34,102 nt of DNA, taken from a virus (lineage: Duplodnaviria > Heunggongvirae > Uroviricota > Caudoviricetes). The DNA lies in the IMG/VR virus record IMGVR_UViG_2778261316_000008, one strand, 5' to 3'. The notes under the pieces are model-generated. The model saw only the letters and a list, made by a program, of their open reading frames with translations. It searched no databases and had not been told where the DNA came from. The first letter of the stretch is position 1. Each line of letters opens with the position of its first letter. This document shows positions 1-34,102 of this stretch, piece after piece. Made by a program: the position numbers and the translations under genes.

Positions 1-330
1 TCAGTAACCAAACAACGCCCATTTTAGTAGTGCATCTGCATCATTCTTCAAACTTCCAAGGTCTTTTCCTGGTGAAATTGTTGCCGCTACACCAAGCGCA
101 TTAAGTCGAAGCTGTGCCTGATGGAATCGACTCTCTTGCTGTAGGCCCAGAATTTCATTTTTATTCGCGACAGCATAACGCTGAATGGCTGACTTCGATA
201 CGCTGTAACCTTTATCGGCTAACCAGAGCGAGAGCCATTCATAACTGGTGAAGTTTGTGCGCGATAATTCGCTATGAAGCTCGGCACGAACATCCTCTGG
301 CAGTTTATCAATATTGCTTGGTCTGGCCAT
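1..330 (-). CDS. DUF3486-like protein (short paralogue of the gp27-like ORF at 12611-13156)
   Basis: ATG at 330 preceded by AGGAGG; N-terminal ~55 aa (MARxSxIxKLPEDVR...GYxxSKSAIxRY) clearly alignable with the 181-aa ORF at 12611; stop codon at bases 1-3. Confidence 0.6.
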   Translation of the reverse strand: MARPSNIDKLPEDVRAELHSELSRTNFTSYEWLSLWLADKGYSVSKSAIQRYAVANKNEILGLQQESRFHQAQLRLNALGVAATISPGKDLGSLKNDADALLKWALFGY

Positions 331-349
331 CTGTCCTCCTATAAATAGC

Positions 350-739
350 TTAGCTATTTTCCACCTTCTCTGAATCAGAGTCACCATCAAACAGTTTGCC
401 CTGCATCCGATCCAATTCTTCTTTTCTGACCCGCTTCACCACGCTGTAAACCCACTGTAGTGAAACACCGAATTTGCGGGCCAGTTCGTGATGGTTGCGT
501 CCGTCAAACTCCAGGAAGATTTCCCGGTCGCGCTGACTGACCTTCCAGACCATGCCCATCGGAAAATAGACGTTTTGCCCACCCCAGACCTGCATCATGC
601 GGTTCGCGACGGCCTGACCAATCTGGTCGGCAACTGCGGGTTCGATATCAATAATCTCGCGGACGGTCTCAGAGGTATGCTGTGCCAGTTCTACCAACAG
701 TTCCGGCCCTTTACTACGAAACTGATTCAGGTCACTCAT
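350..739 (-). CDS. Mor/C-family transcriptional activator (middle/late gene activator)
   Basis: 129-aa ORF from ATG at 739 (MSDLNQ...); C-terminal region (ELARKFGVSLQWVYSVVKRVR) has the HTH pattern of Mor-family activators; position after GemA-like gene as in Mu. Confidence 0.75.
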   Translation of the reverse strand: MSDLNQFRSKGPELLVELAQHTSETVREIIDIEPAVADQIGQAVANRMMQVWGGQNVYFPMGMVWKVSQRDREIFLEFDGRNHHELARKFGVSLQWVYSVVKRVRKEELDRMQGKLFDGDSDSEKVENS

Positions 740-1164
740 TGCTTCACTCCCGCAGCTCTGCTCTGCCACTTCTTCAGTTTCTCAATCACGCTACTTGCCT
801 GCTCATTGCTGAGCCAGCGTAACGCGCTGATGCCTGTTTCCCGTTTAACCCACAGCGCCAGCGCCTGCTCTGAACTGTCTCGGACGATGCCTGCGGCAGC
901 CATTTCAAGCCATAGCGCACGGATTTTCTTTGACTGCGGATGACTATCCAGCGGTAAGCCGGACCTGGCTTTCCCGGCAGGCTTAATGCGAAAGCCTTTA
1001 TTTTTCATGGATTCCAGCACGCGGTTTAGCTGTGGGGTATCCATCCCTTTGGTTGAGGCTTTGCCGGTCAGCCCCTGTAGCATCTGGCGGTAGGTGTCCT
1101 CATCCATCTGGAGGTCGCTGCGGGCAATATGAATGAGTTGAATAAGACGCTGCTTAGTCATCAT
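736..1164 (-). CDS. GemA-like protein (Mu gp16 family)
   Basis: ATG at 1164 (MMTKQRLIQLIHIARSDL...); motif LIxLIHxA...DDTYR...LxxxTGK resembles Mu GemA/gp16; 4-nt overlap with downstream activator gene. Confidence 0.65.
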   Translation of the reverse strand: MMTKQRLIQLIHIARSDLQMDEDTYRQMLQGLTGKASTKGMDTPQLNRVLESMKNKGFRIKPAGKARSGLPLDSHPQSKKIRALWLEMAAAGIVRDSSEQALALWVKRETGISALRWLSNEQASSVIEKLKKWQSRAAGVKQ

Positions 1165-9229: not shown

Positions 9230-10000
9230 TCAAAAATTACAAATTACCAGCTCTTTCTTCGGGCTGGGTTTGCCTGTTACCTTAAGGTTGTAGCTGATAT
9301 CAACCGACTGCATGTTCAGACCGTTGAATACCTGCCGCATTTCCGGGATATCGTTCACTGATATAATCATCTTCCCTTTGATCCTTCGCGCTAAATCTGC
9401 CATGTGATCATAGTTTTCCAGCCCGAACTCCACACCATAGCCTTCCGTTCCCCAGTACGGTGGGTCACAGTAGAACAGCGTATGCGGGCGATCATATCGC
9501 TCTATGCACTGGTGCCAGTCCAGATGCTCTATCAGCGTTCTCGACAGGCGCAGGTGTGCCATCGACAGTTCTTCCTCAATACGCAGCAAATTGAAGCGCG
9601 GCGCACTGGTTGTAGAGGTACCGAATGTGTGATCGGCGACCTTGCCGCCAAATGCCTGTTTCTGCAGGTAGTAGAACCGGGCCGCCCGCTGAATGTCGGT
9701 GAGCGTTTCTTCCGGCGTATCCTGCAACCATTTGTAAATCTGACGGCTGACCAGCGCCCATTTGAACTGGCGAATAAATTCTTCCAGATGATGCTTGACC
9801 ACCCGATAGAGGTTCACCAGTTCCCCGTTGATATCGTTAATGACTTCGGTCTTGCTGGGAGTCTTTAGGAAATAGAGCGCAGCTGCCCCGCAGAACGGCT
9901 CCACATAGCAGGTATGGGCCGGAAACAATGGTAAAATATGCTTCGCCAGACGACGTTTACCGCCAATCCATGGGACGATGGGTAAAGATTGTTCTTTCAT
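9230..10000 (-). CDS. Dam-like N6-adenine DNA methyltransferase (D12 class)
   Basis: DPPY motif (LFYCDPPYWG), SAM-binding-like EPFCGAAALYF; ATG at 10000 (alternative TTG at 10024). Confidence 0.8.
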   Translation of the reverse strand: MKEQSLPIVPWIGGKRRLAKHILPLFPAHTCYVEPFCGAAALYFLKTPSKTEVINDINGELVNLYRVVKHHLEEFIRQFKWALVSRQIYKWLQDTPEETLTDIQRAARFYYLQKQAFGGKVADHTFGTSTTSAPRFNLLRIEEELSMAHLRLSRTLIEHLDWHQCIERYDRPHTLFYCDPPYWGTEGYGVEFGLENYDHMADLARRIKGKMIISVNDIPEMRQVFNGLNMQSVDISYNLKVTGKPSPKKELVICNF

Positions 10001-10247
10001 TATCCGTAAGCCTTTTGCAATCAATGAAAATATGGCAGGCTAGTCTGGTCTCGCGAGACTGACTGAACCCTGGTCGGCTCACAGTGCATACCTGTGGGTT
10101 GATGACCAGCCTGGTGTTACCGCACCGGGCTGGTCGTTCTTTCAAAGCCATCATGCGGTTCACGTCTGCATCCTCACTATTAACGCTGTTTAAAATCCCT
10201 TTCCCCGACCATTTGTGATGCTGTCTCCACTACACAAGGAGACGCTC

Positions 10248-10598
10248 ATGAAAAACCTGAAAAAATTCATTCCCCCTGTTAAAAAGCCACGTCTCAGCGG
10301 CTGGCTGCTGACCGCTGTGCTGCTGCTCGGCACCATCGGTCTGGTATCGCCCCAGCAGCTGCCGGTGGTTGTCTACAAGCTATCACTCATCACGCTGGCG
10401 GCAGTATTGGGCTACTGGCTTGACCGTTCGCTTTTCCCCAAAGCCCGTCCCGGTCAGTACCTGAAGCATGATGACAGGCTGATGGCTGATGGTCGCTTCC
10501 CTGTCCAGACTGGCCTTCACCTGGTCTTTTCTGCTGCGCTAATCCGCCGTGCGCTGATTGTTGCTGCAGTCTGTCTGGCCGTAGCGATGGGGCTTTAA
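10248..10598 (+). CDS. holin-like membrane protein
   Basis: ATG at 10248 with AAGGAGA RBS; three hydrophobic helices; immediately upstream of and overlapping the endolysin gene. Confidence 0.5.
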   Translation: MKNLKKFIPPVKKPRLSGWLLTAVLLLGTIGLVSPQQLPVVVYKLSLITLAAVLGYWLDRSLFPKARPGQYLKHDDRLMADGRFPVQTGLHLVFSAALIRRALIVAAVCLAVAMGL

Positions 10599-17479: not shown

Positions 17480-17515
17480 GGGGCTGTATTACCTTTATAA
17501 AGGCTTTACAGCCCC
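17480..17515. promoter_or_regulatory. nested dyad element in the G-I intergenic gap
   Basis: Perfect 12-bp palindrome CCTTTATAAAGG (17492-17503) flanked by 9-bp inverted repeat GGGGCTGTA / TACAGCCCC. Confidence 0.4.
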
Positions 17516-17649
17516 CGCTTTGCACCACTATTCGCCCGCAGCGTGACATTCCCCGTACTGATACCCCCGATTTTTTCTAAAGCAGATTAAAAGCGCTGCT
17601 GATGCTTTTTCCACAGACTGTCCCCGACAACGTAACGCGGGACAGCAAA

Positions 17650-18747
17650 ATGCCAGCCATTCACATTTTTAAAGCCGGTACTCATACCGATATGCACGGC
17701 ACGAAACTGCCGTTCACGCAAAGCGATCTTGCCGCCTGCGTGAAAGCCTATGACCCGTCCGTCCATGAAGCACCACTCGTTATTGGCCACCCCAAAACGG
17801 AAGACCCGGCGTGGGGCTGGGTGAAATCCCTGTCGCTCAAAGGCGGCGATCTGCTGGCAGAGCCTGACCAGCTCGACCCGCAGTTTGCCGAACTGGTGGG
17901 CAACGGACGCTTCAAGAAGGTCTCCGCCTCATTCTATCTCCCTGACTCACCGAACAACCCGAAGCCCGGCACGCTTTACCTGCGTCATGTCGGCTTTCTG
18001 GGGGCGCAGCCACCTTCCATTAAGGGGCTGAAGCAGGTCTCGTTTGGTGAGAAAGAAGAAGGCGTCGTGGAGTTTGCCGACTGGAGTGATATCACCAATG
18101 CCTCTTTATGGGGCCGTCTGCGCGATTTTCTGATCGCCCAGTTCGGGCTGGACGAGACCGACAAGGTGCTTCCTTCATGGCAGGTTGACTCCCTGCGCGA
18201 AGAGGCTTACCGCGACACCGGGAAGTCTGAACCGGACTTCAGTGAACACAATCCCAACCCTCAACAAGAGAACAGCACCATGACTGAAGAAGAAATCAAA
18301 GCGCTTCAGGCGGAAAACACGCGTCTGAAAGCGGAAGCCACCCAGCGGGCGGAACAGGAAGCAAAGACCAGGCAGGACAAGCTGCACGCGGACAACGTCT
18401 CCTTTGCCGAGAAGCTGGTCGGCGCGGGTCGCCTGACCCCGGCAGCAAAACCGGTTGTTGTTGCCATTCTTGACGCGGTCTCTGCAGGTGACAAGCCGGT
18501 TGAGTTTGCCGAAGGCGATACCCGCACCCCGCTGGCCACGGCGTTTAAGACGCTGCTGGACAGCACTGATCCGGTACTGAATTTCAGTGAGCATGCGACC
18601 AAAGACCGCGTGAGCACGGATATCAAAACGACGTCAGCGGAGTTTGCTGAAGCCGACCCGGAACGTCTGGCGCTGCATCAGAAAGCGCTGGAACTGTCGA
18701 AAAAAGAAGGCATCAGCTACGACGCTGCTGTCTCCCGCTGCCTGTAA
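17650..18747 (+). CDS. prohead protease/scaffold protein (Mu I-like)
   Basis: MPAIHIFKAGTHTD... N-terminus, C-terminal coiled-coil scaffold-like region; alternative upstream in-frame ATG at 17602. Confidence 0.7.
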   Translation: MPAIHIFKAGTHTDMHGTKLPFTQSDLAACVKAYDPSVHEAPLVIGHPKTEDPAWGWVKSLSLKGGDLLAEPDQLDPQFAELVGNGRFKKVSASFYLPDSPNNPKPGTLYLRHVGFLGAQPPSIKGLKQVSFGEKEEGVVEFADWSDITNASLWGRLRDFLIAQFGLDETDKVLPSWQVDSLREEAYRDTGKSEPDFSEHNPNPQQENSTMTEEEIKALQAENTRLKAEATQRAEQEAKTRQDKLHADNVSFAEKLVGAGRLTPAAKPVVVAILDAVSAGDKPVEFAEGDTRTPLATAFKTLLDSTDPVLNFSEHATKDRVSTDIKTTSAEFAEADPERLALHQKALELSKKEGISYDAAVSRCL

Positions 18748-18760
18748 TTAAGGAGAGAAC

Positions 18761-19714
18761 ATGTCTGACTATTTAAAGGGTAAGCGCGTCGTTGACCCGG
18801 TGCTGACCAGCATCGCACGCGGTTATAAAAATGCCGCGTTCATCGGCGAACGCATCTTCCCCATTGTCCTTACCGATAAGGAAGGTGTGACCGTGCCGAC
18901 CTTCGGTAAATCCGCTTTTGTGGAGTACGACACCGAGCGTGCCGTGGGGGCTGACAGTAACGTTCTGGTGCGCGAGAAAACCGGCAAGCTGGACCTGGTT
19001 CTCAACGAGCACGATCTGGCTGCGCCGGTGGACTATCGCGAGCAGGCGGAGTCGATGTTCAACGAAGAGGCCAAAGCCATTCGCCGTGTGACGAGCGGCG
19101 TCAACCTGAAGCGCGAACTGTATGCGGCCCGTCTGGCCCAGGACAAAAACGTCTATCGCGCGGCTAACGTCAAAGCGCTGGCTGCGGCTGACCGCTGGGG
19201 CGGTGGTAAGGGTGACCCGATTGGCGTCATTGAAGGCGGGATTGAGGCGGTACGTAACGCCACCGGCCTGCGTCCGAACCTGATGACCATGGGGGCAAGC
19301 GTCATGTCGCTGCTGAAGTTCCACCCGGCGATTCAGGCCGCGATTGGAGCCAACGAGCGCAAGCGTATCACCATCGAAATTCTGAAAGACCTTTTCCAGC
19401 TGGAAGATGTGGCGATCGGCGAGCCGGTCTCCATGGCCTCCATGAAAGACGCGCAGAACAAGGACAAAGTCCCGACCGATATCTGGGGTGACAACCTGAT
19501 GCTGCATTACGTCGGCAAACCCCAGCCAGGCACCGACAGCGCCGACGAAAACGAGCCGTCATTCGGTTACACCCTGCGCCGTAAAGGGATGCCGGTGGCG
19601 GATAAATACGACGGCGTCGGCGGCAAGGTGAAGTACTGCCGTTATACCGATATCTACAAAGTCGCCGTGGTCGGTGGCGATGCCGGGTATCTCATCACCA
19701 ACATTGTGAAATAA
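18761..19714 (+). CDS. major head (capsid) protein (Mu T-like)
   Basis: 317 aa, strong RBS AAGGAGAG, position after protease/scaffold. Confidence 0.75.
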   Translation: MSDYLKGKRVVDPVLTSIARGYKNAAFIGERIFPIVLTDKEGVTVPTFGKSAFVEYDTERAVGADSNVLVREKTGKLDLVLNEHDLAAPVDYREQAESMFNEEAKAIRRVTSGVNLKRELYAARLAQDKNVYRAANVKALAAADRWGGGKGDPIGVIEGGIEAVRNATGLRPNLMTMGASVMSLLKFHPAIQAAIGANERKRITIEILKDLFQLEDVAIGEPVSMASMKDAQNKDKVPTDIWGDNLMLHYVGKPQPGTDSADENEPSFGYTLRRKGMPVADKYDGVGGKVKYCRYTDIYKVAVVGGDAGYLITNIVK

Positions 19715-23466: not shown

Positions 23467-23473
23467 TATCACA

Positions 23474-23496
23474 GGGGCTTCGGCCCCTTTCTTCTT
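23474..23496 (+). terminator. rho-independent terminator
   Basis: GGGGC-TTCG-GCCCC stem-loop followed by TTTCTTCTT. Confidence 0.6.
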
Positions 23497-23501
23497 AATC
23501 C

Positions 23502-23539
23502 CCTTTAATATCCGTCACGTCCACCTCCAGACATACTGC
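23502..23539 (+). promoter_or_regulatory. candidate activator-dependent late promoter element (copy 1)
   Basis: CCTTTAATATCCG-N18-ATACTGC; same bipartite block with identical spacing recurs at 29318-29355. Confidence 0.45.
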
Positions 23540-23564
23540 TCTGAACTTACACAGGAGCACGATC

Positions 23565-23879
23565 ATGTCACAGACCCAATCCGATACTTTTAAGCTGTCT
23601 TACCCCTTCACCACCGCAGCAGGCACCAGAGTTGAGCAGGTTGAACTGAAACGCCTGACGGTCAAAGACCTGAAGCAGGTGCGCAAAATCAGTAAAGACC
23701 CGGCTGACTGGGACGAACCGCTCATTGCCCGTAGCACCGGTATTCTCCCCGAAGACCTCGATAACATGGATCTTACCGATTACATGGAGCTGCAGAAACG
23801 ATTTCAGCAAGTCACTGGGCTGGGCAAGAGCGACGAAAACGCTGATGCAGGCGCAGGGGCTGCTGGCGAGGTGGTTTAG
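23565..23879 (+). CDS. tail assembly chaperone
   Basis: 104 aa, upstream of tape measure; acidic C-terminus; overlapping +1-frame ORF follows. Confidence 0.6.
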   Translation: MSQTQSDTFKLSYPFTTAAGTRVEQVELKRLTVKDLKQVRKISKDPADWDEPLIARSTGILPEDLDNMDLTDYMELQKRFQQVTGLGKSDENADAGAGAAGEVV

Positions 23880-28793: not shown

Positions 28794-29305
28794 TGGCAGG
28801 CGTCACCCGTCAGGTCGGTACGGTCAGCGCCGTCGATGCCGACAAGGTTCAGGCCCGCGTTCGTCTGCCTGAGTGCGATAACCTGCGCACTAACTGGCTT
28901 AACGTACTGCAGCGCAACACCCAGGATAACAAGGATTACTGGCTACCTGACGTGGGGGAGCAGGTTGAGGTGCTGCTCGATGCCAACGGCGAGGATGGTG
29001 TCATTCTGGGCGCGGTGTATTCAGACGTCGATAAGCCACCGTTCAGCGACAAAAACGTCCGGGGCACGAAATACGCGGATGGCGCAGAGTTCAGCTATAA
29101 CCGCGCGACCCATACGCTGACGGTCAAAGGTGGTATCGAGCGCGTAGTAATCGAGGTTGCGGTAGGTATCAGCCTGAAGGGGAAAACCATTGATTTGACC
29201 GCTGACACCACCACGGTGAACGGCAACCTTGAAATCAACGGCAATGCCCACTCCACAGGCAGCATGCTCTCTGACGGCCAGAACTCCAATCATCACTCCC
29301 ACTGA
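28793..29305 (+). CDS. baseplate spike protein (gpV-like)
   Basis: 170 aa, AAGGAG RBS, position. Confidence 0.7.
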   Translation: MAGVTRQVGTVSAVDADKVQARVRLPECDNLRTNWLNVLQRNTQDNKDYWLPDVGEQVEVLLDANGEDGVILGAVYSDVDKPPFSDKNVRGTKYADGAEFSYNRATHTLTVKGGIERVVIEVAVGISLKGKTIDLTADTTTVNGNLEINGNAHSTGSMLSDGQNSNHHSH

Positions 29306-29317
29306 CCTTCTTAAACG

Positions 29318-29355
29318 CCTTTAATATCGGCGTTCCCGCACAGGGGCAATACTGC
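29318..29355 (+). promoter_or_regulatory. candidate activator-dependent late promoter element (copy 2)
   Basis: CCTTTAATATCGG-N18-ATACTGC, matching the block at 23502-23539. Confidence 0.45.
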
Positions 29356-29359
29356 CCCC

Positions 29360-29707
29360 ATGAAAACAACTTCCGTATTCTGGCAACCGGCCCTGCAGGC
29401 CCCTGGCGAAATCGTCCGGGGGCTGGATGATATCTGGCAGGCCATTCAAATCATCCTGCGAACTCCTCGCGGCAGCGACCCGCATCGCCCGGAGTTCGGC
29501 AGCAACCTGCATCTTTATATCGACTGGCCCATCGACCGGGCTATCCCACATGTGGTGCGCGAGTCCGTTGATGCCATCCGGCGCTGGGAGCCTCGCTGCC
29601 AGCTTATGTCGGTTAAACCCGCCGTCGACGGTGAACATCTTACGCTCCGGGTGAGCTGGAAAGGCTCTGACGGACAGCCCCGGACTCAGGAGCTTTTATG
29701 GTGCTGA
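29360..29707 (+). CDS. baseplate wedge protein (GPW/gp25-like)
   Basis: 115 aa; IWQAIQIILRTPRGSDPHRPEFGSNLHLYI pattern typical of GPW/gp25 family. Confidence 0.75.
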   Translation: MKTTSVFWQPALQAPGEIVRGLDDIWQAIQIILRTPRGSDPHRPEFGSNLHLYIDWPIDRAIPHVVRESVDAIRRWEPRCQLMSVKPAVDGEHLTLRVSWKGSDGQPRTQELLWC

Positions 29708-33472: not shown

Positions 33473-33520
33473 AGAGAAATCTGCAAAAATCCTCCCACTA
33501 TGATGTGAAGGAGGAAATTG

Positions 33521-34102
33521 ATGGCCGTTATTGGTTATATCCGCGTATCAACAATCGACCAGAACAGCGATTTGCAGCGTAATGCACTCACAAGCGCAAA
33601 CTGTGACCGCATTTTTGAAGACCGTATGAGTGGAAAAGTTGCCAGTCGCCCTGGTCTTAAAGGCGCTTTAAAGTGCATTAATAGCGGAGACACCCTGGTA
33701 GTGTGGAAACTGGACAGGCTGGGACGTAGCGTTAAGAACCTGATTGCACTCATATCAGAGTTACATGAACGTGGTGCCCACTTCCGCTCTTTAACAGACA
33801 GTATTGATACCAGCACTGCCATGGGGCGCTTCTTTTTCCATGTAATGTCGGCATTGGCGGAGATGGAGCGCGAGCTAATTGTCGAACGGACACTGGCCGG
33901 GCTGGCAGCAGCCAGAGCACAGGGACGCGTAGGTGGAAGGCCCAACGCATTAAAAACCCATGAGCGAGAGCAGATTGGGCGGCTATTGACGAAGGGGCAC
34001 ACCCGCCAGCAGCTGGCAATTATCTACGGTGTAGGGTTATCGACGCTTTACCGATACTTTCCGGTGGATGGTCATAGGAAGGATAACGCAGCAGGAATGT
34101 AA
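33521..34102 (+). CDS. gin: Gin/Hin/Pin-family serine DNA invertase
   Basis: 193 aa; GYIRVSTIDQN with catalytic Ser, VWKLDRLGRS, C-terminal HTH (GRPNALKTHEREQIGRLL...LSTLYRY); GGAGGA RBS; stop is the last codon of the window. Confidence 0.9.
   Translation: MAVIGYIRVSTIDQNSDLQRNALTSANCDRIFEDRMSGKVASRPGLKGALKCINSGDTLVVWKLDRLGRSVKNLIALISELHERGAHFRSLTDSIDTSTAMGRFFFHVMSALAEMERELIVERTLAGLAAARAQGRVGGRPNALKTHEREQIGRLLTKGHTRQQLAIIYGVGLSTLYRYFPVDGHRKDNAAGM

Follow-up and report, generated by a model that had tools for sequence, protein, structure and literature searches.

Is a two-part sequence that all but touches the start codon of a phage baseplate gene a promoter, a sign that the start codon lies elsewhere, or a signal that acts in RNA? 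The question arises in IMG/VR virus record IMGVR_UViG_2778261316_000008, a 34,102 nt stretch of DNA that was analysed whole and is here called the window. An original prediction, made from the letters alone, had noticed the sequence as the second copy of a bipartite element and had named all three possibilities; as a promoter, it would give a gene for a baseplate wedge protein (W) a leaderless or nearly leaderless transcript.

The element and its phage context

On re-reading, positions 29318-29355 match CCTTTAATATCGG-N18-ATACTGC exactly, and CCCC (29356-29359) fills the 4 nt that separate the end of the element from the GPW ATG at 29360, so the letters, the coordinates and the near contact with the start codon all hold. 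The other copy, at 23502-23539, carries one mismatch (CCG for CGG). A search allowing up to three mismatches finds two matches in the window and none in each of 100 dinucleotide-preserving shuffles. The element is real, but its limits had been drawn too narrowly: the copies stay similar leftward to cTTCTTAAnCnCC, and alignment of the copies at 23502 and 29318 gives cTTCTTAAnCnCCTTTAATATC as the leftward extension of the similarity. The 13-mer originally noticed belongs to a longer box, TTAAA-N4-TTTAATATC, at positions -52 to -32, of which it forms the right half; the accompanying 7-mer takes in all but one of the six bases of a -10 hexamer (nATACT, -12 to -7).

The window is a BcepMu-like (Mu-like, transposable) prophage, with 96-98% identity to Klebsiella phage KP12 and Escherichia phage Phi06_2974, and 85-89% to Escherichia phage PhiKM (Bcepmuvirus). 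Its early operon points leftward, with genes for a Ner-like protein, transposase A and B, GemA and others, and closes with a Mor-family activator:

350..769 (- strand): Mor/C-family transcription activator gene (Pfam PF08765 Mor, E = 1.3e-42)

No recognisable regulator follows this gene in the early operon; the annotations of BcepMu (gp01) and PhiKM call its homologues late activator. The genes for lysis, head and tail point rightward, starting at ~10.2 kb. As in the BcepMu annotation, the tail module is of the P2 type (sheath, tube, E/E', T, U, X, D, V, W, J, I, fibres); the stop codon of V is at 29305, and W, the GPW/gp25 gene, heads a W-J-I-fibre transcription unit. Of 5426 complete E. coli genomes, 635, ST131 strains included, carry the V-W junction region of these prophages. 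The parts of the putative W promoter (P_W) and its gene are as follows, with upstream positions and the dyad centre counted from the A of the W ATG, where +1 is predicted:

29308..29328 (+ strand): TTCTTAAACGCCTTTAATATC, activator box of the W promoter (-52 to -32), a presumed Mor/C-family activator site
29311..29315 and 29320..29324 (+ strand): TTAAA and TTTAA, an imperfect dyad within the W box, centred at -42.5 from the predicted +1
29343..29358 (+ strand): GC-rich inverted repeat GGGGCA-ATAC-TGCCCC, enclosing the -10 and stopping 1 nt short of the ATG
29348..29353 (+ strand): -10 hexamer AATACT (-12 to -7), with conservation of A-11 and T-7
29354..29359 (+ strand): GC-rich discriminator GCCCCC, between the -10 and the predicted start, with a pyrimidine at -1
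29360..29362 (+ strand): predicted transcription start, A 29360, 7 nt past the last T of the -10, and also the ATG of W
29360..29707 (+ strand): W, GPW/gp25 baseplate wedge gene, 115 aa (Pfam PF04965, E = 7e-11)

The start codon of W

The closeness of the element to W could have been an artifact of a wrongly assigned start, and we reject that explanation. ATG 29360 is the first start codon past the in-frame upstream stop; the next in-frame start is a GTG ~64 codons into the gene, whose use would drop the invariant residues W8, Q9, D24 and others. The N-terminus is conserved from residue 1 in the GPW protein alignment, where W8 and Q9 are invariant, the close homologues likewise have 115 aa, and NCBI PGAP places the start at the same ATG in E. 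coli genomes. Shine-Dalgarno (SD) pairing at this start is poor: the best anti-SD match in the window is GGGG at -17 to -14, within the GC-rich hairpin, and among 29 mapped late-gene starts W has the farthest SD-like core and a pairing among the weakest, at -5.7 kcal/mol.

Sister copies ahead of other late operons

Three sites in the window, before the lysis operon, the tail operon and W, share a common layout, TTAA-N5-TTTAAnATC-N20-nATnCT-N6-A. Indexed from the start of TTAA at 0, TTTAAnATC falls at 9, nATnCT at 37-42 and the A at 49, i.e. 7 nt past the last T of the hexamer, which reads GATGCT at the lysis site (10177), CATACT at the tail site and AATACT at W. Each of the three lies in the intergenic gap ahead of a late operon, on the coding strand. 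A PWM trained only on W-upstream regions from other genomes scores the W box at 40.0 bits (at 29308), against a null of 100 Markov shuffles whose maxima averaged 12.3 bits (sd 2.2; highest 17.8). The sister sites and a neighbouring feature are:

10177..10229 (+ strand): third copy, predicted lysis-operon promoter; box 10177-10197, -10 GATGCT 10217-10222, predicted +1 A 10229
17574..17627 (+ strand): candidate fourth copy, head-operon promoter; box TCTAAAGCAGATTAAAAGC, -10 CAGACT 17614-17619; head protease ATG at 17650
23473..23498 (+ strand): intrinsic-terminator-like hairpin and T-run, AGGGGCTTCGGCCCCT then TTCTTCTTAA, closing the sheath/tube unit right before copy 1
23492..23544 (+ strand): copy 1, predicted tail-operon promoter; box 23492-23512, -10 CATACT 23532-23537, predicted +1 A 23544

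Copy 1 scores 28.9 bits and would produce a leader of ~20-21 nt, with the SD AGGAG (23553-23557) followed by the tail assembly chaperone ATG at 23565; the gene downstream matches Pfam Phage_TAC_7. The third copy, first found by a loose search after the box had been extended leftward, scores 24.8 bits and would give a leader of 19 nt, with the SD AAGGAG at 10236-10241 and the ATG at 10248 of a gene with a Pfam holin match. No same-strand gene lies upstream of this lysis copy. The candidate fourth copy at 17574 reaches 17.0 bits, which is borderline against the highest null value of 17.8. A palindrome at 17493-17504, CCTTTATAAAGG, was also considered as a copy and rejected: it lacks a suitably spaced -10 and forms the tip of a long hairpin (17481-17516), and the PWM selects 17574 instead.

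Conservation across relatives

The GPW protein alignment led to 80 loci, taken from one-genome-per-species contigs and covering more than 20 Enterobacterales genera together with Burkholderia, Pandoraea, Dechloromonas, Chromobacterium and Pseudomonas. Their 69 distinct W-upstream sequences were compared without gaps, anchored at the ATG, which is the W start codon in all 69. The most conserved upstream columns are TTAA at -49 to -46 (A-47 in 66/69) and TTTAA[T/A]A at -40 to -34, with further conservation at C-32, C-24 and a C-rich stretch at -6 to -1. Within the proposed -10, A-11 occurs in 62/69 and T-7 in 55/69; both are at their exact positions in 54 sequences, and all 69 have them within a 2-nt shift. 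Position -1 is C or T in every sequence, C-3 is found in 64 and C-4 in 51. None of the 69 has an SD core (GGAG, GAGG, AGGA or AAGG) at -16 to -5, and the best -35 match to TTGACA is at most 3/6 in 68 of them. In the Pectobacterium clade the hexamer, GACAAT, is shifted 1-2 nt upstream, and a 1-2-nt leader for W is possible there.

The set of sites is also found in the relatives. PhiKM has all four (43.2, 31.4, 24.1 and 22.3 bits for W, tail, lysis and head), KP12 also has four, and BcepMu has a W site (32.9), a head site (21.2) and weaker holin and tail sites. A scan of both strands of 1.04 Mb of related loci for further PWM sites above 16 bits found 41 distinct counterparts of copy 1, on the strand of W and 5.8-6.9 kb upstream of it, and three copy-1-type sites at other distances; elsewhere only four weak matches (16-19 bits) occurred. 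Nearly all matches thus stand before the tail chaperone gene, and the box/-10 module is therefore specific. An SD-type motif follows the predicted start of nearly all the copy 1 equivalents, mostly an AGGAG-type SD with an ATG within ~20-25 nt. The tail copy has an SD leader in nearly all lineages, and the W copy adjoins the ATG in every lineage. Taken together, the shuffles, the PWM null and the scan of related loci exclude chance as the origin of the element.

Many Pseudomonas relatives have a long reverse-oriented ORF between V and W (e.g. L082 5903-6919, 338 aa, no Pfam match), and the box, the -10 and the adjoining ATG are kept in the ~50-nt gap before W. With a gene in the opposite orientation between V and W, W must have its own promoter in these relatives.

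A predicted activator-dependent, leaderless promoter

We consider it fairly probable that the element is a sigma-70 late promoter, P_W, which depends on the prophage's own Mor/C-family activator and gives the W-J-I-fibre mRNA no leader. On comparative grounds, the fixed geometry, its recurrence in some 70 relatives and the lack of an SD all support the expectation that a promoter with ATACT in its -10 would produce a transcript that is leaderless or nearly so. In the mechanism we propose, the Mor-like activator, made at the end of the early operon, would bind the dyad TTAAA-N4-TTTAA in the box at -52 to -32, which would take the place of a -35 element, and would recruit RNA polymerase to the -10 AATACT (-12 to -7). 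The first transcribed base would be A 29360 of the W start codon, or one no more than 1-2 nt away, and W would be translated by direct binding of ribosomes to the 5'-terminal AUG, independently of any SD. The sister promoters, with the same geometry and ordinary 19-23-nt leaders that include an SD, would drive the lysis, tail and probably head genes. Binding of the activator, the precise 5' end and translation without a leader at P_W are inferred here from sequence. The box is unlike the Mu C boxes (CATAAcCCC), so its assignment to a Mor-like protein draws on geometry and co-occurrence only.

In the centroid fold of the predicted leaderless W RNA, the first ~29 nt are unpaired. Against the model, E. 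coli translates leaderless messages inefficiently. The leaderless layout is uncommon in that species, and most likely it has been kept in related Mu-like prophages of many bacterial genera. A published dRNA-seq table for B. cenocepacia J2315, a BcepMu lysogen (PMC4603805 Table S3), lists no start at W (BCAS0508), its only prophage starts being inside V and 21 nt before gp20; the late genes are repressed in the lysogen, and the missing W start is what would be expected of them. Searches of the literature found no relevant description of BcepMu late promoters or of the motif strings, and no usable description of a binding site for RdgB, the Pectobacterium Mor homologue.

Alternatively, the element could be a signal in DNA or RNA other than a promoter, such as a site for processing or stability of the V/W RNA, a target of a repressor or nucleoid protein, or the recombination border of two phage modules. 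Repeated intergenic phage motifs are sometimes operators or module junctions, and an AU-rich box beside a stable hairpin resembles, in our reading, an RNase E target next to a protective stem. A sigma-70 consensus scan of the window also called no TTGACA/TATAAT-type promoter at any copy, which could be counted in the same direction but is expected of activator-dependent promoters. However, the box/-10 pair also stands before the holin gene, which no same-strand transcript enters, and right after the terminator at copy 1. The invariant A-11, T-7, pyrimidine at -1 and A at +1 suit a -10 with a start site and not an RNA motif, the spacing of the box equals that of Mor/C promoters, and Rfam 15 has no match at E <= 1 on either strand of 29150-29500. 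We regard a role of this kind as very unlikely.

A promoter might instead start its transcript farther upstream, using TAATAT within the box (29322-29327) as its -10 and leaving the hairpin and the ATG in an ordinary leader of ~25 nt. Both TAATAT and its lysis-site counterpart TAAAAT resemble a -10 well, but the boxes of Pseudomonas relatives and of the BcepMu head and holin sites (GATTAAAAGC) contain no hexamer that combines A as its second base with T as its sixth. Such a start would also leave the fixed distance of A-11 and T-7 from both the box and the ATG unexplained, and its leader would still lack an SD. The box variants and the fixed A-11/T-7 spacing led us to reject TAATAT as the -10, and an upstream start seems extremely improbable.

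A GC-rich hairpin around the -10

The suggestion that the element acts as an RNA-level signal fares less well than the promoter as a main explanation, but it has a counterpart in the GC-rich hairpin that straddles the -10 in many lineages. In the window, GGGGCA-ATAC-TGCCCC appears as a hairpin in the minimum-free-energy fold. The region -30 to +12 of each distinct relative was folded and compared with dinucleotide shuffles. Stability is above expectation (z = -2 to -7) in most Enterobacterales, where the arms vary (GGGGGC/GCCCCC, GGGAC/GTCCC, GGGGAT/GTCCCC), and in Pandoraea, Burkholderia and Chromobacterium (z = -3 to -5), where the outer stem pairs the AUG too (CCGGGCAT...ATGACCCGG). For most Pseudomonas loci and for Lonsdalea z is ~0 or positive, and at the other three promoter copies in the window z > 0, with no such hairpin. 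Occurrence of the hairpin tends to go with V lying directly upstream on the same strand, an association confounded with phylogeny.

Its support from covariation is less clear. The covariation score exceeded those of all 500 shuffles, and slides of +1 or +2 were equally well paired; in the fixed-register count 70% of cells are paired, versus 69-70% for the slides. RNAalifold found no consensus structure in 42 aligned W-start regions. Given this and the weak contrast with the slides, the hairpin rests on per-sequence stability and not on clean covariation. A terminator scan found no intrinsic terminator on the + strand of 29300-29360; CATGAAAAC follows the hairpin, with no U-run. In some Pseudomonas relatives (L063, L067) a terminator-like hairpin lies inside the promoter spacer; it was left out as evidence because the scan accepts it on the opposite strand only.

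If the promoter is real, W might still be made mainly from RNA reading through from the tail promoter, with the hairpin aiding initiation (as a standby platform or a mimic of a 5' end) or with its opening controlling the SD-less AUG. Read-through could reach W, since the + strand has no terminator between the V stop at 29305 and W. Folding at the W start is more stable than in shuffles in most of the enterobacterial and beta-proteobacterial relatives (z = -2 to -7) despite their differing arms, and the stem extends to the AUG in Pandoraea, Burkholderia and Chromobacterium. The positions of the hairpin that are not Watson-Crick pairs are mostly G.T on the sense strand, and the other promoter copies are without such a structure. 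Against this, the Pseudomonas and Lonsdalea loci lack the hairpin yet keep the spacing from -10 to ATG and the absence of an SD, and read-through is impossible where a reverse-oriented gene precedes W. RNAalifold's negative result and a fixed-register pair count only modestly above that of the slid controls also weigh against it, and we know of no mechanism by which a hairpin replaces an SD. We consider this account quite unlikely.

The hairpin is real in many lineages but lies outside the universal design, and the promoter model for P_W neither needs nor explains it. Its persistence with changed arms hints at a role for the read-through RNA, and both the read-through account, the main rival to P_W, and the proposal that follows depend on it. 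One tentative proposal, which we think rather unlikely, is that W is made only from transcripts of its own promoter, and that a hairpin burying or abutting the SD-less AUG silences W on RNA read through from the tail promoter. Were this true, the origin of the transcript, and not the sequence past the AUG, would decide whether baseplate wedge protein is produced, and Mu-like phages of gamma- and beta-proteobacteria would share a conserved, built-in uncoupling of the amounts of baseplate and fibre proteins from those of tail tube and tape measure.

Implications

The BcepMu-like transposable prophages gain a concrete late-promoter code, consisting of box, -10 and fixed spacing. The code allows start codons to be corrected, and that of BcepMu gp32 appears to be mis-annotated. 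The W unit is also predicted to be a second example, and a phylogenetically broad one, of a P2-type baseplate operon with a leaderless first gene. E. coli and its relatives have few leaderless genes, and for that reason a conserved natural one, controlled by an inducible phage activator, would serve as a useful model of leaderless initiation, and likewise for asking why baseplate operons in particular begin this way.

Comparison with known systems

A close parallel is phage Mu, whose late promoters possess -10 hexamers and lack a -35; the imperfect dyad of 16 bp to which C binds has its centre at -43.5 (PMC2582627), and that of Mor, spanning -51 to -36, is also centred at -43.5 (PMC4287176). 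P_W would share with them a Mor/C-family activator, a -10 that lacks a -35 partner and a ~16-bp imperfect dyad over the -35 region (PMC2582627, PMC4287176, PMC4461284), its own dyad centre falling at -42.5 when counted from the predicted +1. The -10 regions resemble each other as well: the Mu oligonucleotides (PMC4461284) read TAGACTGCC for Plys and CTGACTGCT for PI, and the W site, comparable to Plys, reads AATACTGCC. In both phages several copies stand at the heads of lysis, head and tail operons. The systems differ in their boxes, which are of the CATAAcCCC type in Mu and TTAAA-N4-TTTAATATC in the window. They also differ in their regulators: Mu uses Mor and then C, whereas the window shows a single Mor/C gene, so its cascade is probably two-tiered and does not run from Mor to C. 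The promoter precedes a P-like gene in Mu, and here a W-like gene whose ATG is the predicted start. To our knowledge, a start coinciding with the ATG has been reported for no Mu late promoter.

The nearest known analogue of the W hairpin is likewise found in Mu, at com-mom, where a stem-loop in the RNA conceals the start region of a late gene; the resemblance is greatest for the beta-proteobacterial versions that pair the AUG. The mom gene has an SD and a dedicated RNA-binding activator, Com, whereas W is SD-less.

The predicted leaderless start has its parallel in phage P2, whose V-W-J-I-H-G transcript is annotated to start at 10308 of RefSeq NC_001895, the first base of the V coding sequence; PMC4633059, which refers to Christie and Calendar 1985, names P2 beside lambda and Tn1721 as one of the few E. 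coli examples of leaderless messages. Like P_W, the P2 promoter PV is an activator-dependent late promoter at the head of the homologous baseplate/fibre module (V-W-J-I-H), and a reverse-oriented, non-essential gene lies just upstream of it, as in the Pseudomonas relatives of the window phage. The P2 activator is instead the zinc-finger protein Ogr, whose site is annotated at 10239-10266, 42-69 nt before the start; the leaderless gene is V and not W, and no GC hairpin surrounds the P2 -10. An Ogr/Delta-type site (a TGT-N12-ACA dyad near -55) was looked for at W, and 29290-29320 contains no TGT...ACA dyad. The homologous baseplate module would thus start leaderless in two phage groups, under the unrelated activators Ogr and Mor/C. 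Lambda PRM/cI resembles P_W in being a phage promoter whose transcript begins at the AUG and continues into an A-rich, unstructured 5' coding region. It differs in serving a lysogeny maintenance gene, activated by CI, and no late structural operon, and its sequence is unrelated.

P_W is predicted to belong with the Mor/C-type late promoters, a known class. It has a box sequence of its own and an uncommon, deeply conserved property, the expected leaderless first gene, which parallels that of P2 PV; the hairpin may still conceal something new.

Candidate head protease promoters

The box-type promoters treated here combine a presumed activator box with a -10 hexamer at fixed spacing and were scored with a position weight matrix, against a shuffled-window null with a maximum of 17.8 bits. 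Two features bear on the head protease gene:

L083 18809-18865: predicted promoter region of the head protease gene gp32 of BcepMu
Window 17481-17516: long near-perfect hairpin, GGGGCTGTAttaCCTTTATAAAGGcttTACAGCCCC, 3' of the G-like head gene

In BcepMu, a box-type promoter with a score of 21.2 bits has a predicted -10 hexamer, GATGAT, that contains the annotated start of gp32 (18850). Another ATG, at 18862, lies 8 nt downstream of this hexamer, and the product begun there aligns with the N-terminus of the window protease (MNAKPLHIF versus MPAIHIF). The gp32 start is probably mis-annotated, and gp32 in BcepMu, like the baseplate wedge gene W, may be leaderless or nearly so; the head protease gene in the window has a 23-nt leader. 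The window hairpin, probably a terminator or RNA-stability element that precedes the candidate head promoter at 17574, has at its tip a perfect palindrome, CCTTTATAAAGG, similar to the 13-mer of the original prediction (the right half of the longer W box).

The V-W junction

A 6-bp inverted repeat, AACGCC-TTTAATATC-GGCGTT (window 29313-29334), brackets the right-hand half of the W box. In the RNA fold this repeat forms an additional small hairpin; it is partly retained in close relatives (GCC...GGC) and is not found at the tail-operon promoter copy (23492-23544). A search of 5426 complete E. coli genomes located the V-W junction region in 635 of them. Strain Ecol_542 has a 100% match; most copies are 80-90% identical and represent the PhiKM-like lineage, which is common in ST131. 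The prophage family of the window is common in clinical E. coli.

Pseudomonas relatives carry additional elements at this junction:

L082 5903-6919, - strand: ORF between V and W, in reverse orientation (similar ORFs in L061, L069-L076, L078 and L080)
L063 6941-6953 and L067 6944-6956: GC-rich hairpin, GCCGCCG-N3-GGCGGC, followed by TTT

The reverse-oriented ORFs, of 200-340 aa and immediately ahead of the W promoter box, had no Pfam match; they are moron-like cargo genes at an operon boundary, and resemble P2 orf30, which is located before PV. The hairpin, found in some of these relatives, lies within the promoter spacer, between box and -10, and in a terminator scan is terminator-like on the opposite strand only.

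Further candidate sites and the methylase gene

Window 1-390, - strand: ORF downstream of the Mor-like gene, continuing past the left end
Window 33665-33720: box-like sequence, TTTAAAGTGCATTAATAGCGG, inside the Gin-like invertase gene (33518-34102)
Window 10103-10150: strong hairpin, GACCAGCC...GGCTGGTC, then GTTCTTTC, upstream of the lysis promoter
Window 9230-10024, - strand: dam-like DNA adenine methylase gene
Window 10143-10195 (-), L002 30810-30862 (-) and L001 24019 (+): candidate methylase promoter site

The N-terminus of the left-end ORF matches Pfam Phage_Mu_Gp27 (E = 5.5e-14), a terminase-small-subunit-like DNA-binding domain that is unexpected here, where the early operon ends. The invertase-gene sequence, present again in KP12, scores 14.0 bits, in the null range, and probably reflects chance or coding conservation.

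The hairpin upstream of the lysis promoter is likely a terminator of rightward transcription out of the repressor region. The lysis box is palindromic, and its reverse reading puts CATGAT at -12..-7; this site scores 13.7 bits and does not exceed the null. In PhiKM, a separate site with CATCAT, scoring 16.1 bits, lies 48 nt upstream of the methylase gene. The dam-like methylase gene may have a fifth box-type promoter, an arrangement reminiscent of the C-dependent mom promoter of Mu.
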